NCBI GenBank assembly: GCA_000999025.1 | Contig: LCFM01000005.1 | Span: 7,087-71,086 of the forward strand | DNA length: 64,000 nucleotides | Direction of reading: 5' to 3' | Source of the DNA: Parcubacteria group bacterium GW2011_GWA2_43_13 | GTDB taxonomy: Bacteria > Patescibacteriota > Patescibacteriia > UBA9629 > GWA2-43-13 | In this document: piece by piece, positions 13,629-39,957 of the stretch | Layout of the letters: each line of letters starts with the position of its first letter | Position numbering within the stretch: position 1 is the first letter of the stretch | Translations under genes and position numbers: made by a program | Notes under the pieces: model-generated | Told to the model about the DNA's origin: nothing | Seen by the model: the letters and a program-made list of their open reading frames with translations, nothing else | Database searches by the model: none

Positions 13629-14483
13629 GATCGCGATATGTAACCTTCATTCGCACCCCACTGGACATGCGCTTCTCGCGCATCCAGCGAGTCCTTATAC
13701 ATTGATACTCTCCTTAAGGCGTTGGATTTTTTTACATCCATTATCAGTAAGATGTTGTTTATCGGCGATGAGAAAGGCGGCTTTACGAAAAAGAAGATAA
13801 TCTTTCCGTTTTTTTGCCTGTAGGGGATGCTTGTCAAAGAATGGAATAATATGTTCAACGATATCTTTAATATTTGAAACCTTTAGTTTGACGTGAGGTT
13901 TCCATTGAGCATATCGTTGATACTCCAATCTATAGAGATTTCCGCATCCTAATGTTTTTTGTATCGCTTGTAACACAGCACGATCATCTTCTTTGACTTC
14001 TATTTCAAAGAGGAGACGGACTTCTGATTTTCGGCGAAGTGTTTTGTGTTTGGCAATACTGATACAAAAACATCCTTCTCCATCTACGAACCCAACAATA
14101 TAATCAGGAGAAATGTGTAAGGTTTGTTCCTTCGTTTTTGGCATACTTATAAAGTATACCTCAAAACTACTATGAACGCAGCTGACTTCCTTTTAACCCA
14201 TCATTGGTTAACACGTTAAAAGGATCTCCCTGGGTTAGTGTATGAGCTATTTCCGACATTCCAAACGGGTTTTTAATGCTTACTTCCCATAGGTACACGC
14301 TATGATCGTAAACACCCTTATCGTGTTTGGGCTGTCATTTGTGTATAGAACCCTTCAGACATTCCCTTACGGGATATGTCCTGTTCGCAACTATTCCGCA
14401 CTCACTTTGGGGAATACCCCAAAGTGAGTGCGGGACAAGGATTTTCACCTTGTAGTTCATACGCCTGCCAGGCGCATTTAATT
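13629..14483 (-). mobile_element. intron in 16S rRNA (group-I-like) carrying a homing endonuclease gene, inserted between GGGCGGTG and TGTACAAG (E. coli approximately 1391)
   Basis: Conserved 16S sequence stops at 13628 and resumes at 14484. The intervening 855 bp contain the LAGLIDADG ORF. Confidence 0.8.
13695..14144 (-). CDS. LAGLIDADG-family homing endonuclease (single-motif)
   Basis: 149 aa. DYIVGFVDGEGCF motif (LAGLIDADG variant) near the N-terminus. Located wholly inside the 16S intron. Confidence 0.8.
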   Translation of the reverse strand: MPKTKEQTLHISPDYIVGFVDGEGCFCISIAKHKTLRRKSEVRLLFEIEVKEDDRAVLQAIQKTLGCGNLYRLEYQRYAQWKPHVKLKVSNIKDIVEHIIPFFDKHPLQAKKRKDYLLFRKAAFLIADKQHLTDNGCKKIQRLKESINV

Positions 14484-14546
14484 TGTACAAGACCCGAGAA
14501 CGTATTCAACGCGCCGTGGCTGATACGCGTTTACTAGCGATTCCGG

Positions 14547-14585
<39 letters not shown>

Positions 14586-14790
14586 GGTAGTTTTAAGGGA
14601 TTAGCTCCACCTCGCGGTTTGGCAACCCGTTGTACTACCCATTGTAGCGCGTGTGTCGCCCAGGACGTAAGAGCCATGCTGATTTGACGTCATCCCCACC
14701 TTCCTCCCTGTTAACCAGGGCGGTCTATTGTGGAAAGTAACACAATATAGGGGTTGCGCTCGTTTTCCGACTTAACGGTACACTTCACAG

Positions 14791-14821
<31 letters not shown>

Positions 14822-14915
14822 ATAGCACCCTCGAAGGCTTCCCGATTTCTCGGGATATGCAGCTATATGTCAAGCCCTGGTAAGGTTCCTCGCTTATCAT
14901 CGAATTAAACCACAC

Positions 14916-14985
<70 letters not shown>

Positions 14986-15793
14986 GGTACTTAACGCGTT
15001 AGCTTGGTTATAAGCACCTCTGGGAGGGTCGATACTCCCAAAAGCTAGTACCCATCGTTTACAGCGTGGACTACTGGGGTATCTAATCCCATTCGCTCCC
15101 CACGCTTTCGTCCATGAGTGTCAGAACTGTTCTAGCAAGCTGCCTTCGCCTTTGGTGTTCCGGCTGATATTAACGCATTTTACCGCTACACCAGCCGTTC
15201 CGCTTGCCTCTCCCAGTCTCGAGTTTGTCAGTTTTCCCCGCACTCTTATGGTTGAGCCACAAGATTTAACGAGAAACTTGACAAACAACCTGCGGACGCT
15301 TTACGCCCAATAAATCCGGATAACGCTTGAGGTCTCTGTATTACCGCTGCTGCTGGCACAGAGTTAGCAACCTCTTATTCGTAAGATACCTTCAGCCGAA
15401 GCTTATTCTCTTACAAAAGCCGTTTACAACCCGAAGGCCTTCTTCCGGCACGCGGCATTGCTCCTTCACGCTTTCGCGCATTGAGGAAGATTCTCGACTG
15501 CAGCCTCCCGTAGGAGTCTGGGCAGTTCTCAGTCCCAGTGAGGCGGGTCATGCTCTCACACCCGCTATCCGTCAGAGCCTTGGTGAGCTTTTACCTCACC
15601 AACAAGCTGATGGACCATAGGCCCCTCCTTTACCGCCGAAGCTTTCTTTTTCTTTCATATGAAAGAAAAACGTATGCGGTATTAGCCCGCCTTTCGGCAG
15701 GTTATTCCCCAGTAAAGGGTAGGTTACCAGTGTGTTACTCACCCGTTTGCCACTTGGCCTTGCGGCCACGTTCGACTTGCATGCCTAAGACAT

Positions 15794-15830
<37 letters not shown>

Positions 15831-16007
15831 ATAAAAGATTGTGATGCTTTTGTACACTATAGGCGCACCACGAACCTGAAAAATGTTGTATTTGGAATTG
15901 ACGTTGAGTTGGTCTATTACATTTCAGTTTTCAATGAACCGATACTCTTTTAACTAAAAACACAGAGGTCTTCTGTGCGTGATTTTTAGCTATGTTAAGA
16001 GCAGTAC

Positions 16008-22973: not shown

Positions 22974-24344
22974 ATGACACCGGAACAACTCTGGCAAGCA
23001 ACGCTTGGTGAGCTCGAAGTATCACTCTCTCGCGCAAATTTTACAACGTGGTTTAAAAACACGTTTATTGCTGATATCTCCCAGCAGAAAATTATCGTCG
23101 CGGTTCCGAACGCATTTACAAAGTCATGGCTTGAGAATAAATATCACAAAGCGATTATAAAAGCATTACAACACTTAACCGACAATTCGGTACGAGAGGT
23201 ATTGTATCAAATTGTTACTCACGAAAAACAGGGGGGTATAAAGCATGATGATCCTGTTGCGCAAGAAGCGTTGTCGCCGTATGTTCGAACCGCACATTCG
23301 AATACGGCTCATGCAGAGTCGTCAGGCGGTTCAAAATATACCTTTGATAATTTTATTGTTGGAAAGGGAAACGAACTTGCCCATGCGGCAAGCTTTGCTG
23401 TTGCAGAAGTGCCTGGAAAAAAATACAATCCGTTATTTCTGTATGGCGGAGTGGGGCTTGGGAAGACACATTTAATGAGGGCAATATCTCATCATGTAAA
23501 GCTCCGCAATCCTCAAGCCAATGTACTGTATGTTACGTCTGAAAAATTTACCAATGATTTTATTCAAGCGTTGAAAGAGGGCAAAACAAAGGAGTTTAAG
23601 CTTATTTATAGAAGCCCTGATGTACTGTTGATAGATGATATCCAATTTATTACTGGCAAAGAGCAGACGCAAGAGGAATTTTTTCATACCTTTGAGGCGC
23701 TTCACCAAGCAGATAAACAAATTGTGATGACCTCGGATCGTCCTCCAAAAGCGATAGGCGCGTTACCTGACCGTCTGCTTTCTCGATTTGAATGGGGCAT
23801 GATTGCTGATATTTCATTTCCTGATCTTGAAACGCGGATCGCGATACTGACGTCAAAATGCGCGGAAAAGGGGTGTATTATTTCTCAAGAGGTTTTGGAA
23901 TACGTCGCTTCGAATATCCAGCATAATATTCGGGAACTTGAAGGTGCGTTGAATAAAATTATTGCGCATCACCAGTTATTTAATCACACTCCGACGATTG
24001 ATACGACAAAAGAGATTATTTCGTCATTGGCGCTTAATCCCACGAAAGGAGCGGTAACTCCGCGAAAGCTCATAGAGATCGTGGCGCGGTATTACGATGT
24101 TCCTATTGATGGATTAGTTGGTTCGAGTAGGAAAAAAGAACTTGTTGGTCCGCGTCAGATCGCGATGTATCTTTTAAGGGAAGAAGTGGATGCCTCATAT
24201 CCGGCAATTGGGCAGGATATGGGTGGTAGGGATCATACAACTGCAATGCATGCGTATCAAAAAATTGCTGAAGCATTGCATAAAGATGATCGTTTAAAAC
24301 AAGAAATTGCAAATATTACCCAGTTGCTGTATCAGGGAGCATAG
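22974..24344 (+). CDS. dnaA: chromosomal replication initiator protein DnaA
   Basis: AAA+ Walker A GGVGLGKTHL, Walker B LLIDDIQF, sensor motifs, C-terminal DNA-binding domain. Confidence 0.95.
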   Translation: MTPEQLWQATLGELEVSLSRANFTTWFKNTFIADISQQKIIVAVPNAFTKSWLENKYHKAIIKALQHLTDNSVREVLYQIVTHEKQGGIKHDDPVAQEALSPYVRTAHSNTAHAESSGGSKYTFDNFIVGKGNELAHAASFAVAEVPGKKYNPLFLYGGVGLGKTHLMRAISHHVKLRNPQANVLYVTSEKFTNDFIQALKEGKTKEFKLIYRSPDVLLIDDIQFITGKEQTQEEFFHTFEALHQADKQIVMTSDRPPKAIGALPDRLLSRFEWGMIADISFPDLETRIAILTSKCAEKGCIISQEVLEYVASNIQHNIRELEGALNKIIAHHQLFNHTPTIDTTKEIISSLALNPTKGAVTPRKLIEIVARYYDVPIDGLVGSSRKKELVGPRQIAMYLLREEVDASYPAIGQDMGGRDHTTAMHAYQKIAEALHKDDRLKQEIANITQLLYQGA

Positions 24345-26023: not shown

Positions 26024-26028
26024 TAAGA

Positions 26029-26122
26029 GCAATCCTAACCTACTCATACATCCGAATCTACTAATACGGCGGACGTATTTGTAGATTAGCAGATTAGGAT
26101 GTCATTCGTAGATTAGGATTGC
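26029..26122. repeat. family-C palindromic element (about 94 bp), intergenic copy
   Basis: GCAATCCTAACCTACTCATACATCCGAATCTACTAATACG ... GTAGATTAGCAGATTAGGATGTCATTCGTAGATTAGGATTGC imperfect inverted repeat. A second copy lies inside tsaD at 32192-32316. Confidence 0.7.
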
Positions 26123-26124
26123 TT

Positions 26125-27363
26125 ATGATTATTGGTATTGACTTTTCCCGCGGTGAGATGGAACATCGCACCGGTGTGGAGTGGTATAGTCATAATATTG
26201 TTAAGCATCTACTTGATCTCGGCGCAGAGCACGAGATTGTTTTATATTCACGGAGGGGTGGGGTTTCCTCGTGTTGTAGAGATGGGGTTAACCCTGTCTC
26301 TATGGTGCATCTTCGCTGGCCATTCCGATTCGGCTGGACCCAGTTTCGTTTATCATTAGAAATGGTTCTGCGTCCGCCAGATGTATTGTTTGTACCATCG
26401 TATATTTTACCACCCATAACACCTAAACGCGTGGTAACTATGGTGCATGATGTCGCGTTTAAACGCCATCCAGAATGGTATTCTCAAAAACAAATACGAG
26501 TATTGGAATTAGGGATACGAAGGATTATTAAGAAACGTGTTGTTGTATTAGTGCCAACGGAATTTGTGAAACGAGAATTATTAAAGTTGTATCCGGAAAT
26601 GTGCGATTTGGATATTCGTGTCATTCCACATGGCGTTGATCACACGTTGTTTCGTCGTCGTTCCCCCTCGCCTTTACAAGGAGAGTCCGCTCCGCCAGCT
26701 GGTGGATGGCAGAGGGGTGAGGTGGTGGATACGAAAGTAGTACCCCCATCCCCGTATTTCCTCTTCATCGGTCGCTTGGAAAGTAAAAAAAATATTTCCC
26801 ATATTGTGGATGCATTTGTAGAGTTCGTCGGCGACGTTCCCTCGCCTTTACAAGGAGAGGGAAGGGTGAGGTCTTACGTAAAATCCGGCGACGTAGAGAC
26901 GGGGTTTCCGCCAGAGGCGGATCACCCACAGGGGGAAACTCCGTCTCTACAGACATCTCTCCTCCTCGTCGGTCGTCCTGGCCATGGTTACGAAAGATTT
27001 GCTCATAAATTGAATCATCCCAATATTCATGTTATACCATCGGTATCAGCCGAAGAATTGGTAATACTCTATCAAAATGCAATCGCATTGGTATTTTCAA
27101 CATTATACGAAGGGTTTGGTATGCCCATTCTTGAGGCCATGGCATGCGGATGTCCGGTAATCACCTCAAAAGGCGGTGCGTACGAAGAAGTGGCAGGAAC
27201 TGCCGCGTTATTGGTTGATCCTCATAATATATTAGATATTGCGGATGCAATGATAAAGATTCAATCAGGGGGCTGGAAGGAAAAAGGGTTAAAAAGAGCG
27301 CATCAATTTTCATGGGACGCATCAGCCCAACAAACATTAGCACTCGTATGCAACAAATATTGA
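26125..27363 (+). CDS. glycosyltransferase family 4 carrying in-frame repeat insertions
   Basis: N-terminal GT4 domain and C-terminal EGFGMPILEAMACGCPVITS motif. The middle (26650-26990) is built from family-A and family-B repeats translated in frame (SPSPLQGE..., VPSPLQGEG..., DVETGFPPEADHPQGETPSLQT). Confidence 0.75.
   Translation: MIIGIDFSRGEMEHRTGVEWYSHNIVKHLLDLGAEHEIVLYSRRGGVSSCCRDGVNPVSMVHLRWPFRFGWTQFRLSLEMVLRPPDVLFVPSYILPPITPKRVVTMVHDVAFKRHPEWYSQKQIRVLELGIRRIIKKRVVVLVPTEFVKRELLKLYPEMCDLDIRVIPHGVDHTLFRRRSPSPLQGESAPPAGGWQRGEVVDTKVVPPSPYFLFIGRLESKKNISHIVDAFVEFVGDVPSPLQGEGRVRSYVKSGDVETGFPPEADHPQGETPSLQTSLLLVGRPGHGYERFAHKLNHPNIHVIPSVSAEELVILYQNAIALVFSTLYEGFGMPILEAMACGCPVITSKGGAYEEVAGTAALLVDPHNILDIADAMIKIQSGGWKEKGLKRAHQFSWDASAQQTLALVCNKY
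26276..26303. repeat. family-A element copy inside GT4 gene
   Basis: GTAGAGATGGGGTTAACCCTGTCTCTAT. Confidence 0.7.
26653..26727. repeat. family-B element copy (CGTCGTCG..CCTCGCCTTTACAAGGAGAG..GGTGGATGGCAGAGGGGTGAGGTGG)
   Basis: Shares the CTCCTTTACAAGGAGAG palindrome and GGGGTGAGGT tail with copies at 26826, 28191, 29295 and 50848. Confidence 0.7.
26826..26872. repeat. family-B element copy
   Basis: CGTCGGCGACGTTCCCTCGCCTTTACAAGGAGAGGGAAGGGTGAGGT. Confidence 0.7.
26893..26950. repeat. family-A element copy with 30-nt internal loop insert
   Basis: GTAGAGACGGGGTTTCCGCCAGAGGCGGATCACCCACAGGGGGAAACTCCGTCTCTAC. Confidence 0.7.
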
Positions 27364-28781
27364 TATTTATTGTATTGGTAAGTTTGCCAGCATATTTGAT
27401 TCGGTTTGAGGTTTTTGGTATTCCAACCACGCTTTTGGAAATGGGAATTTATGCGGTGGCGTGTCTCCCGCTTCTTTACAATGAGAATCCGCTCCGTCAT
27501 CTGGCGGATGGCGGAGGGGTGAGGTGGAAGAAGAGATTCGCTGAGATGTTCCATCTGTTCAAACCATACCTCTGGCCATTACTGCTCTGGCTGGGAATGA
27601 CAACAGTGTCTGCTATAGTGAGCGCTACGTACGGGGATTGGATGTTGGGTTTTGGGATTTTGAAGGGATGGTTTTTTGATCCATTGTTGTTGACGTGGGT
27701 GGTTATGGCGTGTAGAGACGTGGCGGTGCCGCGTCTCCGTGGGAACGTGCCAGGTGGAGACGCCCCAGCGAGGCGTCTCTACAATATGCGTCTATTACTC
27801 GCCACAGGCCTTCTTGCTTCTGCGCTTATAATCAGCGCGTATGGATTATTTGATTACATGATGGGTTGGACGCGTGATGGTAGGTTAGATGCATTTTTTA
27901 AAACTTCAAATTATGTGTCCATGTTTATTGTGCCGGTATTGATATTGGGAGTAGGAATGATTGTAGAGACGCCCCCCTGGGGCGTCTCCGTCGCGCGCTG
28001 GAAATCGGCGCTGATGATCATTGTCATGATTATGATAACTACCGCTCTTATCCTCACCAATTCTTTTGGCGGCTGGATAAGCGCGTTGATTGGGGTAGTT
28101 GTTTTTTTCGTTTTTTTCTTACGACACCAAACACCCCCTTCCTGTCCCTCTTCCCATCACAAGGATGGGGCACAGCAAGAGGGGAGCGATCGTCGTCCCC
28201 CTCTCCTTTATAAGGAGAGGGTAGGGGTGAGGTGTTGGCGCATAGTTTTTATACTCATATCTCTCATGGTTCTTGGTGCTTTCGTCTGGTACGGCTTACC
28301 CCGTCACTTTACTCACCGCAACGAATTTTTTAATGTAACATCTTCCCAACTGCGACAAAATTTATGGCGTGTGGCAGGGGATATGGTGCAAACCCATCCG
28401 ATACTTGGTGTGGGGCTGGGAAGATTTCAAAAAGAATTGCCAATTCTTATAAAACAAAAACCGCACCTTTTGACGGTTCAAACGATATTAGTTGATTTTC
28501 ATCTTCCGCATAATTTATATCTGACAATCGCATCAGAATCCGGGCTCATCGCCTTGCTTGGTTTTCTATGGTTTATCGGGTTATGGTTATGGCGTGGAGC
28601 AAAACAATACATATCAACCCGTGATCCTATACTTCTCGGCGCACTCTGCGCCATGCTTACTATTCTCATCCACGGCTTTGTAGACACTCCATATTTTAAA
28701 AATGATTTATCGATATTGTTTTGGATAGTAGTGGTGATTGGAGTTTTGTCATCCTCAGAACGGAAGTATACCGTTTTGTAG
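27312..28781 (+). CDS. O-antigen ligase/polymerase-like (Wzy_C family) polytopic membrane protein carrying five in-frame repeat copies
   Basis: Multi-TM. GVGLGRFQKEL...HLPHNLYLTIASESG resembles the O-antigen ligase domain. True start may be the ATG at 27348. Family-A copies at 27712, 27756 and 27963, and family-B material at 27503 and 28191, are all read in frame. Confidence 0.6.
   Translation: MGRISPTNISTRMQQILIFIVLVSLPAYLIRFEVFGIPTTLLEMGIYAVACLPLLYNENPLRHLADGGGVRWKKRFAEMFHLFKPYLWPLLLWLGMTTVSAIVSATYGDWMLGFGILKGWFFDPLLLTWVVMACRDVAVPRLRGNVPGGDAPARRLYNMRLLLATGLLASALIISAYGLFDYMMGWTRDGRLDAFFKTSNYVSMFIVPVLILGVGMIVETPPWGVSVARWKSALMIIVMIMITTALILTNSFGGWISALIGVVVFFVFFLRHQTPPSCPSSHHKDGAQQEGSDRRPPLLYKERVGVRCWRIVFILISLMVLGAFVWYGLPRHFTHRNEFFNVTSSQLRQNLWRVAGDMVQTHPILGVGLGRFQKELPILIKQKPHLLTVQTILVDFHLPHNLYLTIASESGLIALLGFLWFIGLWLWRGAKQYISTRDPILLGALCAMLTILIHGFVDTPYFKNDLSILFWIVVVIGVLSSSERKYTVL
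27712..27738. repeat. family-A element copy
   Basis: GTAGAGACGTGGCGGTGCCGCGTCTCC. Confidence 0.65.
27756..27782. repeat. family-A element copy
   Basis: GGAGACGCCCCAGCGAGGCGTCTCTAC. Confidence 0.65.
27963..27989. repeat. family-A element copy
   Basis: GTAGAGACGCCCCCCTGGGGCGTCTCC. Confidence 0.65.
28191..28232. repeat. family-B element copy
   Basis: CGTCGTCCCCCTCTCCTTTATAAGGAGAGGGTAGGGGTGAGGT. Confidence 0.7.
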
Positions 28782-28829
28782 AGACGGGGTTCCATAATCA
28801 CAAGGGCGTGGCAAGAACCCTGTCTCTAC
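28778..28829. repeat. family-A element (long-loop variant) at convergent gene junction; probable bidirectional terminator
   Basis: GTAGAGACGGGGTTCC...GAACCCTGTCTCTAC. Its GTAG and CTAC termini are the stop codons of the plus-strand gene (TAG 28779-28781) and of valS on the minus strand (28826-28828). Confidence 0.7.
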
Positions 28830-31660
28830 GCAAGCTTGTTTAATTTTTTTTGCGCTTGGTGGAGTTTAGATTGTTCGGTTTGTATGACTGCTTTGGGCGC
28901 CTTTGCGAGGAAATCTTGATTTGAAAGTTTTTGCTCAAGAGATGTGATGTAATGTTCCAATTCTTTTTTTGCTTTATTGATTTTTTTATCATCGCGCGGG
29001 ATGTGCAGGGTGAGGGAGATACCATGTTCGTGGATAGTGTGGCCTTGGGTGTTTGTTTTGGTTTGATTGATAAATGTTACGCGTGCCAGTTTTTCGATGA
29101 GGAGGATATTGGGGGATATTCGGCGTTGTAGAGACGGGGTTAACCCCGTCTCTACAACGAGCGACGGTTCTATTTTAAACTCCGCCCGCGCGTTGCGGAT
29201 GGCTGTGATGATGGCACGGATAGTGGCGTGGTGTTTGAGGGCAGGTGAGGATTTAATGGTTGGTGATTTGGGGTAGGGGGCGATGAGGATCAATGACGAC
29301 GACACACCCTTCTGCCCCCTCTTAATAGAGGGGGAAACATCGTCGTCGTCCCCCTCTCCTTTACAAGGAGAGGGTAGGGGTGAGGTTAAGGAGGGGGTGG
29401 TATTTAATTCTCCCCACACTTTTTCCGTAATAAACGGGATAAACGGATGCCAGAGGCGTAACAGAGTTTGTAAAATATATAATAATATTTCGTTTTTTCC
29501 CTGTTCAATCTTTACAATCTCCACATACCAATCTGCAAATTTATCCCAGGTGAATTCGCGCAATTTTTCTCCGGCTGGTGAAAATTCAAAATTATCCATG
29601 TGCTTGGTAACATCATGGATCAAGATATCTAATTCTGCCAAAATCCATTCATCACTTAATGTTTGTGCTTTTGGTTTTTTTTCTATCAACTGTGGTGTAT
29701 CAACGGTGGTAAGAATAAACCGCGAGATATTCCAGAATTTATTGATAAAATTCCTAAACCCTTCAATTTTTTCCTCATACATTTTTATGTCATTACCCGG
29801 GGTGGAGCCGATAATTAAGGATAATCGCAACGCATCTGTGCCGTATGTTTGAATCATCTCTACTGGATCAATCCCATTGCCTAATGATTTTGACATTTTT
29901 CTGCCTTCTTTATCCCGCACCATCCCGTGAAGATACACGGTTTTAAAGGGGATTTGTTTAGTGTTATAGGTTGTCATTAAAATCATACGCGCAACCCAAA
30001 AGAATAAAATCTCATACCCTGGCGCCATGACTGAAGTTGGGTGGAATGTTTTAAAATCAGGCGAGCGTTTCAGCCATTCGGCAAGGGATTCATCTTTTTT
30101 TATTTTCGTATCAAGTAGGGTTGAAAATGTCCACAAGGCAGACGAGAACCATGTGTCCAATGTGTCCGGGTCCTGGGTAAACGTGGTGCTTCCACAGCGC
30201 TTGCATTTTTTAGGTTGCTCAATACTGGCGAGCGGGGGGCACGATTTTTTGATTTCGTCCGCCAGCTGGCGGATCGGATTTCGGATTTTTGTTTCGCAAT
30301 ACCAAACCGGCACTCTGTGTCCAAACCAAATTTGGCGGGAAATGCACCAGTCCTGTAAATTATTTATCCAGTGAAAATATGTTTTTTTAAATCTGCTCGG
30401 CAAAATTTCAATATCCTCGGATTTAACCACATCAATGGCAACTTCCTTGAGTGTTTTCTTTTTTCCTTTCCATACAACAGCTGGTTTATCCACGCTCATA
30501 AACCATTGCAAAGAAAGATACGGCTCAACCACTGCATCACAACGATAACAATGCCCAATATTATGTATGTGTTTTTCTGTTTTTTTCAGCAGTCCACGTT
30601 GTTGTAATTCCTCAATAATAAGTTTGCGAGCATCAGCAACAGCCCAGTTTTTGTATTTTCCGCCGTGATCATTGAGTGTGCCGTCAGGGTTGAGGATATT
30701 GATATATGCAAGATTGTGGCGTTTAGCGATTTGATCATCATTAAAATCATGCGCAGGAGTTACCTTTACCGCGCCGGTTCCAAATGAGGGGTCCACATGT
30801 CTGTCCGCAATGATTGGAATTTCGCGATTTGCAAGCGGAAGGGTAACAGTTTTGCCAATAAGATGTTTGTATCGTTCATCTTTTGGGTTGACTGCAACGG
30901 CCGTGTCGCCGAGCATGGTTTCCGGACGGGTTGTTGCGACGGTTATTTTGCCCCCCCCTCCTAAGGTAGGATGGGGTGGGGGGAGGTCTGAATTTTTTAT
31001 CGGATAATCAATATAATACAATATTCCTTCTGTTTCCGCGTATTCCACTTCGTCATCCGCAAGCGTGGATTCACATCTTGGACACCAATTGACCAACCGA
31101 TTGCCGCGAACAATCAATCCGTCGTTGTACATGTTTACAAATACTTTTTGTACGCATTTGGTAAGCACAGGCGACATGGTATATGCTTCGCGCGACCAAT
31201 CGCAACTTGCGCCTAATTTTCGCAGTTGATGTTCTATGGTTGTTTTTGATTCTTCAACATACTGATTCACGCGTTCCAAAAATTTTTCACGCCCTAAATC
31301 GTGCCGGGTTTTTCCTTCTTGCGAGATTAGTTTTTCTACCTTATTCTGAGTGGCAATAGCGGCATGATCCACACCCGGCACCCATAGTGTTTTTTCTCCT
31401 TTCATGCGGTGATACCGTACAATCACATCGTGCAGAGATGTTTCCATGGCATGGCCAAGATGCAACACCCCGGTTGCGTTCGGCGGTGGCATCATTAAAG
31501 AGAATGGCTTTATCTTTTTTCCTGAATAATGATCTGGATTAAAAAATCCTGACTGCTCCCATTGTCGGTATATGCCATCCTCAATTTTTTGAGGATCGTA
31601 TTGTTTGGGTAATTCGGCCTGTTTCCGCGTTTTTGATAGTTTTTTAGTGCCTTTTTTCAT
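28826..31660 (-). CDS. valS: valine--tRNA ligase
   Basis: HIGH (PNATGVLHLGHA) and KMSKS (KMSKSLGNGIDP) motifs, editing domain. 944 aa including approximately 60-80 aa of repeat-derived insert near the C-terminal coiled coil. Confidence 0.95.
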   Translation of the reverse strand: MKKGTKKLSKTRKQAELPKQYDPQKIEDGIYRQWEQSGFFNPDHYSGKKIKPFSLMMPPPNATGVLHLGHAMETSLHDVIVRYHRMKGEKTLWVPGVDHAAIATQNKVEKLISQEGKTRHDLGREKFLERVNQYVEESKTTIEHQLRKLGASCDWSREAYTMSPVLTKCVQKVFVNMYNDGLIVRGNRLVNWCPRCESTLADDEVEYAETEGILYYIDYPIKNSDLPPPHPTLGGGGKITVATTRPETMLGDTAVAVNPKDERYKHLIGKTVTLPLANREIPIIADRHVDPSFGTGAVKVTPAHDFNDDQIAKRHNLAYINILNPDGTLNDHGGKYKNWAVADARKLIIEELQQRGLLKKTEKHIHNIGHCYRCDAVVEPYLSLQWFMSVDKPAVVWKGKKKTLKEVAIDVVKSEDIEILPSRFKKTYFHWINNLQDWCISRQIWFGHRVPVWYCETKIRNPIRQLADEIKKSCPPLASIEQPKKCKRCGSTTFTQDPDTLDTWFSSALWTFSTLLDTKIKKDESLAEWLKRSPDFKTFHPTSVMAPGYEILFFWVARMILMTTYNTKQIPFKTVYLHGMVRDKEGRKMSKSLGNGIDPVEMIQTYGTDALRLSLIIGSTPGNDIKMYEEKIEGFRNFINKFWNISRFILTTVDTPQLIEKKPKAQTLSDEWILAELDILIHDVTKHMDNFEFSPAGEKLREFTWDKFADWYVEIVKIEQGKNEILLYILQTLLRLWHPFIPFITEKVWGELNTTPSLTSPLPSPCKGEGDDDDVSPSIKRGQKGVSSSLILIAPYPKSPTIKSSPALKHHATIRAIITAIRNARAEFKIEPSLVVETGLTPSLQRRISPNILLIEKLARVTFINQTKTNTQGHTIHEHGISLTLHIPRDDKKINKAKKELEHYITSLEQKLSNQDFLAKAPKAVIQTEQSKLHQAQKKLNKLA
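29128..29155. repeat. family-A element copy (canonical) inside valS
   Basis: GTAGAGACGGGGTTAACCCCGTCTCTAC perfect 28-bp palindrome. Translated as VETGLTPSL. Confidence 0.8.
29295..29386. repeat. family-B composite element inside valS
   Basis: GACGACGAC...CCCCCTCTTAATAGAGGGGG...CGTCGTCGTCCCCCTCTCCTTTACAAGGAGAGGGTAGGGGTGAGGT. Translated (minus strand) as SPLPSPCKGEGDDDDVSPSIKRGQKGVSS. Confidence 0.7.
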
Positions 31661-31760: not shown

Positions 31761-32897
31761 TTATTTTAGCCGCAGATTTGGATCTGCGGTTATTTTTCTG
31801 TAATCTGTTTTTTGTTTTGAGTATTTTGTTTTTACCAATGCGGCGATGGCGATCATGGCGGCGTTGTCAGCCGAGGTGCCGGGGAGAGGGAAGCGGAGAT
31901 CAGTTTTCGGTTTTCGGTTTTCAATTTTCAGTTTTTCTGTGAGTTGGTTTCGGAGGTGTTGATTTGCGGCGACACCGCCACCGACAACAAGGGTTTTAAT
32001 ATGGTAGTGTTCAACTGCTCGCAGGGTTTTTATAACTAACACATCAATTGCCGCGTTTTGAAATTCGCATGCGACTTGCGCGCGATTATAATCGGGGTGT
32101 TTTTCTATCAAATATCGCACTGCGGTTTTAAGTCCCGAGTAACTGAAGTTGAAGTCAGGAGAATCAATCATCGGGCGAGGGAATGTTATGGGCAATCCTA
32201 ATCTACTAATAACATCCGAATCTACGAATACGGGGCTGTCGTCTGTAGAGACGGGGTTAACCCCTCTTCTATGGTGTATTATTTGTAGATTAGGATGCAT
32301 TCGTATATTGGGATTGCTCCATTCGGATGCCTCTTGTTCTATCGCTGGACCGCCAGGATAGGGAAATCCTAAGAGTTTTGCTACTTTATCAAATGCTTCG
32401 CCCACCGCATCATCAATCGTTGTCCCGATAATCTCAAAATCATAGTGCTGTTTCATAAGCACCAATTGCGTGTGTCCGCCAGATACCAACAGCGCAAGCA
32501 CGGGAAATTGAAAATCATCAACATTTTTTAGTGTTGAGTAAATATGGCCAGCCATGTGGTTTATAGGAATGAGCGGTTTATTCCATGCCAGTGCCAGCGT
32601 TTTTGCCGTCTCTACGCCGATATGCAATGCCGCTATAAGACCGGGGCCCTGCGTTACGGCAATGCCGTCTATATTTTGATACGAAATATGAGCGGCATCA
32701 AACGCTTGTGTGATAACAGGGATGATATTGAGGATATGGTTACGCGCGGCAATTTCCGGTATGACGCCACCATATTGTGCGTGAATTTTGGCTTGCGATG
32801 CGATGATATTTGACACAATAGCAATAGCACCATTTGTTTCTTGTACAATGGCGGCCGCGGTTTCATCGCATGATGATTCAATTCCAAGGATGATCAT
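31761..32897 (-). CDS. tsaD: tRNA N6-adenosine threonylcarbamoyltransferase TsaD (Kae1/YgjD family) carrying in-frame repeat insertions
   Basis: MIILGIESSCDETAAAIV..., HMAGHI and GGVAAN motifs. Start moved to ATG 32897. Contains a nested family-C/family-A insert (32192-32316) and a family-D heptamer array (31897-31945). Confidence 0.9.
   Translation of the reverse strand: MIILGIESSCDETAAAIVQETNGAIAIVSNIIASQAKIHAQYGGVIPEIAARNHILNIIPVITQAFDAAHISYQNIDGIAVTQGPGLIAALHIGVETAKTLALAWNKPLIPINHMAGHIYSTLKNVDDFQFPVLALLVSGGHTQLVLMKQHYDFEIIGTTIDDAVGEAFDKVAKLLGFPYPGGPAIEQEASEWSNPNIRMHPNLQIIHHRRGVNPVSTDDSPVFVDSDVISRLGLPITFPRPMIDSPDFNFSYSGLKTAVRYLIEKHPDYNRAQVACEFQNAAIDVLVIKTLRAVEHYHIKTLVVGGGVAANQHLRNQLTEKLKIENRKPKTDLRFPLPGTSADNAAMIAIAALVKTKYSKQKTDYRKITADPNLRLK
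31897..31945. repeat. family-D heptamer tandem array (CAGTTTTCG GTTTTCG GTTTTCA ATTTTCA GTTTTTC)
   Basis: Five degenerate 7-mer units, in frame in the tsaD C-terminus. Related arrays at 16414, 16851 and 51996. Confidence 0.6.
32192..32316. repeat. composite nested element: family-C palindrome with a family-A element (32245-32272) inserted at its centre, inside tsaD
   Basis: GCAATCCTAATCTACTAATAACATCCGAATCTACGAATACGG-[GTAGAGACGGGGTTAACCCCTCTTCTAT]-...ATTTGTAGATTAGGATGCATTCGTATATTGGGATTGC. Compare the insert-free copy at 26029-26122. Confidence 0.75.
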
Positions 32898-37150: not shown

Positions 37151-38185
37151 ATGAATACTTCATTGTTTGATTATCATCTTCCAAAAGAGCTCATAGCTCA
37201 TGAGCCAATAACACCCCGCGATTCAGCGCGGGTGTTTGTTGTGGAGGGGGAGGTGCGTCATCATGATTTTTTTTATAATATTGGGAAATATGTTAAAAAA
37301 GGCGATATTCTTGTGCGTAATGTTACAAAGGTGTTTCCAGCGCGTCTTTATGCTACAAAAATGACTGGAGGTAAGGTAGAGATTTTATTAGTCCGTCCAT
37401 TAGACGGTTCTCGATGGGAGTGTTTAGTAGGGGGACGCGCAAAAGACGGGATGGAGGTGCGATTCGATTGTAGAGACGTGCCCTTGGCACGTCTCTCGGA
37501 AACGCCCCAGGGGGGCGTCTCTATGATATGGATTATAGATTTCGGGCAAAATATAGATAACCTTGGAACACTCATTGAAACCGCAGGTCAAACGCCCGTG
37601 CCACCATATATTCACACCGATATGGCGGAGCAGGAATTGCGCGACCGATATCAAACAATATATGCGCATAAAAGTGGTTCAGTGGCGGCGCCAACCGCTG
37701 GCCTGCATTTTACTGATGAATTGATAGATCAGTTGAAACGCCAAGGTATTGAATTTTTAGACATTATTTTGCATGTGGGGATTGGCACTTTTTTGCCTGT
37801 AAAAACGAAAAACGTAGAAGATCACTCTATGCATGCCGAGTATGTAGATATCTCAAATGAGGTTGCACAAAAAATATGTTCAGCAAAATATGAAGGCCGA
37901 CGTCTCATCGCTATTGGAACAACTACGACCCGTGCGCTTGAGGCGTGCGCAGATACACTGTTATTAGGTAAAGGATATACAGGCGAGGTGAATATATTTA
38001 TAACGCCTGGATACGAGTTTCGTATGATTGATGGATTGGTGACTAATTTTCATCTTCCAAAATCAACATTACTCATGCTGGTTTCTGCGTTTGCAGGCCG
38101 TGAAAATATCCTTTCTTGTTACCAAGAGGCCATTGCATTGGGCTACACATTTTACTCTTTTGGTGATGCAATGCTGATAAGTTAA
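37151..38185 (+). CDS. queA: S-adenosylmethionine:tRNA ribosyltransferase-isomerase QueA carrying two tandem family-A insertions
   Basis: MNTSLFDYHLPKELIAHEPITPRDSARV... and conserved QueA blocks. 37469-37523 translates as DCRDVPLARLSETPQGGVSM. Confidence 0.9.
   Translation: MNTSLFDYHLPKELIAHEPITPRDSARVFVVEGEVRHHDFFYNIGKYVKKGDILVRNVTKVFPARLYATKMTGGKVEILLVRPLDGSRWECLVGGRAKDGMEVRFDCRDVPLARLSETPQGGVSMIWIIDFGQNIDNLGTLIETAGQTPVPPYIHTDMAEQELRDRYQTIYAHKSGSVAAPTAGLHFTDELIDQLKRQGIEFLDIILHVGIGTFLPVKTKNVEDHSMHAEYVDISNEVAQKICSAKYEGRRLIAIGTTTTRALEACADTLLLGKGYTGEVNIFITPGYEFRMIDGLVTNFHLPKSTLLMLVSAFAGRENILSCYQEAIALGYTFYSFGDAMLIS
37469..37495. repeat. family-A element copy
   Basis: GTAGAGACGTGCCCTTGGCACGTCTCT. 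Confidence 0.65.
37498..37523. repeat. family-A element copy (partial left arm)
   Basis: GAAACGCCCCAGGGGGGCGTCTCTAT. Confidence 0.6.
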
Positions 38186-39559: not shown

Positions 39560-39636
39560 TGGGAGGCAACGGCGGGAATCGAACCCGCGTATAAGGGTTT
39601 TGCAGACCCATGCCTTACCACTTGGCTACGTTGCCT
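39560..39636 (-). tRNA. tRNA-Cys (anticodon GCA), CCA encoded
   Basis: Reverse complement AGGCAAC...GTTGCCT acceptor. Anticodon loop CTGCAAA at standard positions 32-38. T-loop GGTTCGATTCC. 3-bp D-stem. Confidence 0.7.
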
Positions 39637-39811
39637 CTCACTCGATTGAATCGCTCCGCACCTTTCCGTTCAATGGGTTTTGGTATTCAACGGAAGAGAG
39701 CGAAGCGGCTCCGCCTCACATCTATGATTTTAAAGAAGATCATTCGCGAGAAAGGTGTGGGGTTGCAGACCCCATGCCTGACCATTGTTGGTTTGTCATT
39801 TGTGTCGGCTT

Positions 39812-39839
39812 GCAGAGACGGGGTTAACCCCGTCTCTGC
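39812..39839. repeat. family-A element copy (GCAGAGACGGGGTTAACCCCGTCTCTGC) in the polA upstream region
   Basis: Canonical centre GGGGTTAACCCC. Located between tRNA-Cys and the polA start. Confidence 0.7.
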
Positions 39840-39957
39840 AACTAAAAACACATCAACTGTACCAAGATTAGTGCCAAAATGCAACTATTCAAAAAGGATG
39901 GAGGAAGGTATACTGGTTGGAGTAATACCACCTCATCTCTCTTGGGGAGGCCGAACT

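Follow-up and report, generated by a model that had tools for sequence, protein, structure and literature searches.

How does a glycosyltransferase gene come to carry four copies of dispersed palindromic repeats inside its reading frame and still encode what looks like a normal enzyme? The question is raised by a GT4 gene in a 64,000-nt stretch of contig LCFM01000005.1 from Parcubacteria group bacterium GW2011_GWA2_43_13. This stretch, referred to below as the window, has 43% GC and contains a bacterial 16S rRNA gene and tRNAs. Our analyses indicate that the gene, which is predicted to encode a working glycosyltransferase, has probably been colonised by small, non-autonomous selfish palindromes that are tolerated in permissive loops and resemble repetitive extragenic palindromes (REPs) and Rickettsia palindromic elements (RPEs).

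The copies in the GT4 gene belong to two families, A and B, both of which are dispersed, multi-copy, able to form very stable hairpins and found in frame in many housekeeping genes. Family A has arms (TT)GTAGAGACG and CGTCTCTAC(AA) around a GC-rich inner hairpin; the arms are constant while the inner hairpins vary among copies. Nearly all A copies begin with GTAG at the 5' end. Single units have this GTAG mirrored by, and paired with, CTAC, while in inverted dimers it occurs at one end only of each half (27711-27783; L081 5150-5224). A second dimer of the window lies at 37469-37523, and further ones were found in L081, L087, L089 and L099. Family B reads (T)CGTCGT-CCCCTCTCC-TTTACAA-GGAGAGGG-TA-GGGGTGAGGT, in outline CGTCGT, CCCTCTCC, a loop, GGAGAGGG and GGGGTGAGG. 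A third family, C, is AT-rich and palindromic, with arms AGCAATCCyAAyCTAC and GTAGATTAGGATTGC.

All three families were more abundant in the window than expected. The A arm TGTAGAGACG was found 17 times with at most one mismatch against 1.6 expected (11 loci per 64 kb, in units of 26-30 nt), the B core at five sites with at most three mismatches against 0.00 expected, and the C arm motif 12 times against 1.9. Hairpin energies ranged from -19.6 to -45.2 kcal/mol, with z scores down to -7.9. Every intragenic A and B copy is in frame and encodes a Pro/Gly/Glu-rich peptide. TAG is present in the third frame of A and in one frame of B, and these stop-containing frames are never used within genes; none of the copies splits a gene of the window. 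The copies are strongly clustered, with 11 of the 17 A and B copies of the window within 26.2-29.4 kb (5% of its length, binomial p = 4.6e-11) and four of the 17 inside the GT4 gene (p = 2.7e-4), in agreement with the hot spot proposed in an earlier reading of this DNA (the original prediction).

The two B copies, the long-loop A copy and the further A copy that had been predicted in the GT4 gene were all recovered (Table 1). B-long is built from a CGTCGTCGTT prefix, a hairpin of CCCTCGCC and GGAGAG, a 28-nt inner hairpin module (26686-26713) and a GGGGTGAGGTGG tail. The RNA hairpin of A-long was calculated at -38.5 kcal/mol (z = -6.7) and that of the short A copy at -19.6 kcal/mol (z = -5.1). 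The density of repeats had been overestimated: about half of the interval 26650-26990 is repeat DNA (~173 of 341 nt), not almost all of ~340 bp. The segment between the two B copies encodes PYFLFIGRLESKKN..., the start of the C-terminal domain that is found in every homologue, with R217, K222 and N223 invariant or nearly so across 86 homologues. The supposed partial B-like tail proved to be the native strand LLLVGRPG, in which L279, L281 and G283 are conserved across the 86 homologues; CTCGTCGG is kept, together with the codons after it (LVGxPGHGY), in three relatives, L081, L082 and L110, that all lack the A insert. What had been read as one stacked linker is two separate sites, one in the linker and one in a C-domain loop, with 36 conserved native codons between them. 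The size of the excess was revised as well, since the protein is ~40 aa longer than the homologue median of 372 (10th to 90th percentile 360-399), and not 50-70 aa longer than typical GT4 enzymes.

Table 1. Repeat copies, native segments and host gene at the GT4 locus and nearby (positions in the window; a point in the strand column, no strand assigned)
Feature	Position	Strand	Details
GT4 (GT-B fold) glycosyltransferase gene	26125..27363	+	ATG at 26125; 412 aa; intact open reading frame; four in-frame repeat copies
Family-A copy, short form (GTAGAGATGGGGTTAACCCTGTCTCTAT)	26276..26303	.	Encodes CRDGVNPVSM; loop before N-domain strand 3
Family-B copy, long form (B-long)	26653..26725	+	Peptide RRRSPSPLQGESAPPAGGWQRGEVV; lies in the linker between the domains
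Native conserved GT4 sequence (…PYFLFIGRLESKKNISHIVDAFVEFVG)	26726..26832	+	First strand and first helix of C-terminal domain; no repeat DNA
Family-B copy, short form (B-short)	26833..26873	+	GACGTT-CCCTCGCC-TTTACAA-GGAGAGGG-AA-GGGTGAGGT; encodes VPSPLQGEGRVRS
Family-A copy, long-loop form (A-long)	26893..26950	.	GTAGAGACGGGG-TTTCCGCCAGAGGCGGATCACCCACAGGGGGAAA-CTCCGTCTCTAC; encodes VETGFPPEADHPQGETPSLQ; inverted repeat
Native codons TSLLLVGRPGHGY	26953..26990	+	C-domain strand 2; no repeat
Family-C element, ~96 nt, filling the PilB-GT4 spacer	26028..26123	.	Inverted repeat; 16-nt arms, 94% complementary
Family-B long copy in the Wzy_C gene	27464..27527	+	84% identical to B-long of GT4; same hot spot
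Family-A inverted dimer, in frame in Wzy	27711..27783	.	GTAG ends outside; RNA fold -45.2 kcal/mol; extra relative to L081
Intergenic family-A copy between convergent Wzy and ValRS	28777..28830	.	GTAG/CTAC ends
Perfect family-A copy (TTGTAGAGACGGGGTTAACCCCGTCTCTACAA), in frame in ValRS	29126..29158	.	Same site in L081: identical arms, different interior
Family-B copy in the ValRS reading frame, antisense orientation	29343..29386	+	Same site in L081 and P0124: B in opposite orientation
Family-C element, 127 nt, in frame inside tsaD	32190..32317		Second C copy, with an A copy nested at its centre

Support for a normal enzyme came from domain searches and a structural model. The protein contains the Pfam domains Glyco_transf_4 and Glycos_transf_1, the match to the latter starting only at profile position 61, and it retains an intact E-x7-E region (EGFGMPILEAMA). 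An AlphaFold model built on an alignment of 86 sequences had an intact GT-B fold with a mean confidence score (pLDDT) of 88.4, and Foldseek matched it to MshA, BshA, PimA and WaaG. Low scores (below 50-60) were confined to residues 181-205, which correspond to B-long (below 50 at residues 190-200), and 238-275, which correspond to B-short and A-long; the native start of the C-terminal domain scored ~97. The inserts, whose peptides include SPSPLQGESAPPAGGWQR and SGDVETGFPPEADHPQGETPSLQTSLLLVGR, are thus modelled as disordered loops on an otherwise normal enzyme fold. The model also corrected the placement of the inserts between the N- and C-terminal domains, which holds for B-long only: this copy lies in the interdomain linker, while B-short and A-long sit in a loop of the C-terminal Rossmann domain, between its first helix and second strand. 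From general Rossmann topology, this loop would face away from the substrate cleft.

In alignments of 16 and of 86 homologues, proteins at 35-42% identity had gaps exactly at B-short and A-long, and their linker was different in sequence and shorter. The original prediction had named a native linker of similar length and sequence in repeat-free relatives as the observation that would speak against it. No repeat-free relative with a native linker of similar sequence was found, so its reading of the inserts stands in this respect; the reading as a native low-complexity linker was rejected.

A closer view of the inserts was provided by syntenic relatives: L081 (GT4 61% and ValRS, valyl-tRNA synthetase, 80% identical), L082 (GT4 57%) and L110/L111 (GT4 71%, ValRS 80%). 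At the orthologous sites of these genomes, repeat copies of the window are missing, half-deleted or replaced. L081 and L082 have no B copy in the linker; L110 has one at the same 5' junction (33 of 35 nt identical), there without the inner module and read in a different frame from the window copy. For A-long, L110 has the left arm GTAGAGACGGGG only, and the window holds 54 extra nt (26905-26958). At the 26276 site L110 has the right half AACCCCGCCTCTAC only, the window holds 27 extra nt (26263-26289), and L081 retains a remnant similar to the left half. B-short has diverged orthologues in both L081 (31 of 40 positions identical) and L110 (27 of 41) and must be an old insertion, because it is shared in this diverged form. 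A recent pile-up does not agree with these data, since B-short and the 26276 copy occur in decayed form in relatives at 61-71% protein identity. Both B copies of GT4 carry a private variant, CCCTCGCC, where L081 and L110 have CCCTCTCC.

All length differences among the syntenic GT4 genes in the DNA alignments (27 and 54 nt) are multiples of three, and this speaks for continued selection on the reading frame of the gene. Together with the gaps in distant homologues and the present, absent and half-deleted states in relatives, the kept frame supports the proposal that these are inserted repeats read as extra Pro/Gly/Glu-rich peptide. In the 22.7-kb L110 locus, family A was found as single-arm remnants only (at 467, 4131, 12446 and 15675), while family B has intact copies, so the fates of A and B seem to differ in that lineage. 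Compared with the intact copies of the window, these remnants would fit an A family with activity in one lineage and decay in another.

We propose that copies arise by a copy-and-paste or conversion process acting on hairpin DNA, and that selection would purge those that break the frame, bring in the TAG frame or strike structured parts of a protein. The survivors would therefore gather in a small number of permissive loops and at the ends of genes. The frame pattern, with TAG-free frames only and no split genes, is what selection on random or hairpin-targeted insertion would leave. The cluster at 26-29 kb may reflect fast-evolving, tolerant cell-envelope genes (GT4 and Wzy) and a preference of new or converted copies for sites in or beside existing ones, and the extra GT4 peptide would then be a passenger rather than a designed linker. 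Our leading guess for the mobilising enzyme, a tentative one, is a HUH tyrosine transposase similar to the REP-associated tyrosine transposases (RAYTs), encoded elsewhere in the genome.

Several observations weigh against this explanation. In the genome fragments at hand, which cover too little of the genomes for a negative to carry much weight, a phmmer search of open reading frames (ORFs) of at least 70 aa from the window, 107 loci and L110 gave no homologue of E. coli RayT at E <= 10, and a regular-expression scan for HUH/Y1 motifs found nothing. Target-site duplications were not consistently present, either among B copies or at junctions filled in one relative and empty in another; TCGTCG flanks the L110 linker copy on both sides and was not reproduced at other copies. 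At 26276 (GT4), 27464 and 27961 (Wzy) and 29126 (ValRS), repeat-free homologues have unrelated sequence of similar length, and these copies look like replacements rather than simple insertions. The element parts shared by window and L110 are better conserved (45 of 47 nt identical) than the flanking codons (77% overall, 61% at third positions), which is unexpected for passive junk. Finally, translation of the inserts is suggested solely by their frame conservation.

Some of these points would be accommodated if the copies had spread and stayed uniform chiefly through a hairpin-mediated, recombination-like overwriting of one copy by another (gene conversion or template switching) and not by transposition, a rather unlikely alternative in our estimate and one that overlaps with colonisation by selfish palindromes, from which it differs in mechanism only. 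It would account for the replacement of native sequence of similar length by several copies, for orthologous copies that are better conserved than their flanks, for the variant CCCTCGCC common to both GT4 B copies where L081 and L110 have CCCTCTCC, and for the lack of any target duplication or transposase among our results. The A site of ValRS is a further case, as the arms are identical in the window and L081 and the interior differs. Nevertheless, arms of 9-12 nt are short for homologous recombination, new sites would still have to be seeded, and identical 26-30-nt copies in contigs that are otherwise dissimilar (38-53% GC) call for transfer or transposition at some stage.

Re-use of sites is relevant here. 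The same loops hold different elements across lineages in TsaD, in the GT4 N-domain, at the ValRS B site (where L081 and P0124 have B in the opposite orientation) and in the PilB-GT4 spacer. Across three diverged syntenic genomes, the GT4 linker and ValRS C-terminal sites are likewise re-occupied by differing members, orientations or interiors. Site re-use, swapped interiors, replacement and element conservation point to conversion among copies, nested or adjacent targeting, or constraint on the hairpin. It is conceivable, although we would not bet on it, that the elements are more than tolerated junk and represent a hairpin-targeted copy or conversion process that re-uses sites within essential genes, possibly without a dedicated transposase. 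If so, such a process would keep rewriting surface loops of housekeeping proteins in an expectedly small genome of the Candidate Phyla Radiation (CPR).

We regard it as distinctly unlikely that the hairpins have been co-opted and are kept by selection, whether through an action in cis on the mRNA or DNA (ribosome pausing at the domain boundary as an aid to co-translational folding, mRNA stabilisation or transcriptional attenuation within the operon) or as functional flexible linker peptides. Extremely stable hairpins within coding sequence, one of them exactly at the boundary of the N and C domains, would suit such roles, as would the retention of B-short, with a hairpin still present in each genome, since the split from L081 and L110, and the conservation of element parts (45/47) against 61% at synonymous sites. 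The A copy between Wzy and ValRS also resembles a bidirectional terminator and provides both stop codons. However, the same elements are scattered over unrelated genes and positions, L110 retains only halves of two copies and two are missing from L081 and L082, yet the ORFs remain intact in all of them, and B-short itself is decaying (66-78% identity). The stability and G-U pairing of sense and antisense hairpins were unbiased (24 vs 16, p = 0.30, for 50 intragenic A-like matches that include some chance matches), and this lack of a sense-strand bias gives no support for selection at the RNA level. No match was obtained in Rfam other than sub-threshold hairpin matches to a plant miRNA family. 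A terminator and promoter scan of 25.9-29.5 kb found no excess over shuffled sequences, and no T runs follow the A or B copies.

It is very improbable that the inserts are left untranslated, through ribosomal bypassing or excision from the mRNA. Phage T4 gene 60 and the GC-rich 'byp' elements of yeast mitochondria offer precedents, and GC-rich hairpin inserts in a 43% GC genome are reminiscent of them, but every intragenic copy is in frame and free of stops and the length differences are multiples of three, none of which bypassing or excision would require. The programmed translational bypass element was rejected as a candidate class, since no copy breaks the frame or carries a stop.

An assembly artefact or a decaying pseudogene is hardly credible: repeats can mislead metagenome assemblers, but the 412-aa protein is identical on 16 contigs of independent assemblies (NCBI, JGI, ENA, Logan), annotated as Candidatus Jacksonbacteria or Parcubacteria, with only two variants known, each of a single residue, so that the sequence is no accident of assembly, and in addition orthologous copies occur in three other genomes, the ORF is intact with its catalytic motifs and fold conserved, and the same elements lie in ValRS and TsaD, both presumably essential genes.

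Other genes of the window carry repeats as well. GT4 is flanked by a gene for a PilB-like T2SSE ATPase on one side and a Wzy_C (O-antigen-ligase-like) gene on the other, and the ValRS gene is convergent with the latter. The C element that fills the PilB-GT4 spacer has a right arm ending 2 nt before the GT4 ATG, with AGGA in the arm 9-12 nt ahead of the start. Wzy contains four in-frame copies; the borders of its inserts were not definable by DNA alignment with L081, which is too divergent (35% aa identity). A further C-rich palindromic stretch in this gene (28135-28190), coding for PPSCPSSHHKDGAQQEGS, is directly upstream of a Wzy B copy and is not found in L081. The TAG stop codons of Wzy and ValRS, at 28779-28781 (+) and 28826-28828 (-), are both provided by the A copy between them. 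ValRS has one A copy, one B copy and one further C-rich hairpin, CCCCCCCCTCCTAAGGTAGGATGGGGTGGGGGG at 30950-30983, which codes for a window-specific 11-residue insert (DLPPPHPTLGGGG) that neither of the two 80%-identical relatives has. In L081 and L110, the TsaD loop is taken up by similar 'PPPTLGGG' hairpins. In the window, the C element in tsaD adds ~35-40 residues relative to L081. QueA contains an in-frame A dimer, which is also present in L110 in decayed form, and TruB has one in-frame B copy.

Several features of the wider locus were noted in passing. At 39610-39940, the polA ORF has an upstream extension of ~110 codons that PolA of L110 (912 aa) does not share, and it runs into a tRNA gene at 39564-39635 (minus strand); the A copy at 39810-39842 therefore probably lies in the 5' leader and not in the protein. 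The dnaA gene (22974-24341) lies two genes upstream of GT4, and the cumulative GC skew climbs steadily through the whole window with no switch near it. The 16S rRNA gene (14449-15836, minus strand) measures only 1388 nt against a 1533-position model, and no 23S rRNA gene adjoins it within the window.

Outside the window, the exact 26-nt A palindrome was found in 25 metagenome contigs of 38-53% GC, most of which have no other similarity to the window; no exact A copy was found in viral contigs. Copies of A type were in frame in genes for MutS, TopA (topoisomerase I), a DinB-like polymerase, MiaA, Mur ligases and UDP-glucose dehydrogenase. The mutS gene of L101 contains a relative of A-long at 87% identity, which indicates that this form is a heritable sub-family and not a local accident. 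Hairpins of related appearance were also seen in an Anaerolineae contig (B-like with a GGGGTGAGG tail, L017:1216-1320) and a Prevotellaceae contig (an A-like GTAG inverted dimer, L075:9968-10046), so related motifs may be spread across phyla.

Bacteria of the CPR are thought to have small, streamlined genomes. The window has about one small palindromic element per 3.5 kb, most of them within conserved housekeeping genes and apparently read in frame. Such inserts inflate protein lengths, break domain-model matches, as in the truncated Glycos_transf_1 match, and give rise to false low-complexity 'linkers' in catalogues of CPR proteins. The three-genome comparison affords a rare view of the life cycle of intragenic elements, with intact, half-deleted and decayed copies and swapped interiors. 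If the re-use of sites reflects targeting or conversion, the locus would be a tractable case of selfish hairpin DNA remodelling protein loops.

Family A can be compared most directly with REPs, since GTAG- and CGTC-tagged REPs have been described in eight phyla, including copies read in frame inside genes (those for polA, truB and tRNA synthetases), TAG stops formed by GTAG ends, variable complementary loops and inverted dimers (Di Nocera, De Gregorio & Rocco 2013, PMC3733652). Like GTAG REPs and the REPIN-RAYT systems, family A is a small, dispersed, GC-rich palindrome, within the 20-40 bp of the definition, that starts with GTAG and occurs as single units and as frequent inverted dimers with GTAG outward. 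It has sub-families with alternative complementary (compensatory) stems and variable loop lengths, is found at the 3' ends of convergent genes, where it gives TAG stops, and shares in-frame copies in the same gene classes (tRNA synthetase, truB), with a further A copy just upstream of polA. It differs in that GTAG of single A units is part of the stem and mirrored by CTAC, whereas the REP tag is unpaired at one end, and in that about seven of the 11 A copies of the window are intragenic, whereas REPs are mostly extragenic. Moreover, no RAYT was found in the window, the 107 loci or L110, and the host, Candidatus Jacksonbacteria (CPR), is outside the survey of Di Nocera et al. (PMC3733652), in whose searched supplements neither A nor B sequences were found.

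Family B is less easily placed. CGTC-tagged REPs, which include RPE-4 and RPE-6, are defined by a CGTC tag, an 8-9-bp stem with A/T as its first two pairs, a 4-5-nt loop and a short CCA-like tail, and TIRYT tyrosine transposase genes are bordered by inverted repeats that bear GGGGWSAS (PMC3733652). B copies are found within genes, most of them open with CGTC(GT) and have a stem of 8-9 bp, and the B tail GGGGTGAG fits the GGGGWSAS consensus. However, the B stem starts with CC instead of the near-invariable A/T pairs, its loop TTTACAA is 7 nt long (5 if one more pair is counted), its tail is TAGGGGTGAGGT and not CCA, and it has no adjacent transposase gene. Based on stem, loop and tail, B was not classified as a CGTC-tagged REP. 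The inverted termini of A and B also recall miniature inverted-repeat transposable elements, a class further defined by target-site duplications and kinship with an autonomous insertion sequence; no consistent flanking duplication was seen among B copies or at junctions with a filled and an empty state in relatives. As for the host protein, it shares both Pfam domains, the GT-B fold and the E-x7-E motif with the GT4 enzymes MshA, BshA, PimA and WaaG and differs from them by ~40 extra residues in two disordered loops.

The closest parallel to the way in which the elements are lodged in genes is provided by RPEs, the classic example of selfish DNA inserted in frame (Ogata et al. 2000, summarised in PMC10969869 and PMC3733652). 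In both cases, palindromic selfish DNA lies in frame in unrelated housekeeping genes of a small genome, adds a peptide where the fold permits it and is missing from orthologues. The likeness was judged by description, and the host, Candidatus Jacksonbacteria, belongs to another phylum. Elements of the RPE-1 type are ~100-150 bp long, a size that only family C (96-127 nt) reaches, as A and B units measure 26-73 nt, and in contrast to RPEs several families are stacked and nested here at the same loops. No paper in the literature searched reported such repeats in Jacksonbacteria, Patescibacteria or CPR, and our results extend the REP/RPE phenomenon to this new major lineage. It is well supported that the GT4 locus represents a known phenomenon, palindromic DNA of the REP/RPE kind within a functional gene, in a new bacterial lineage.

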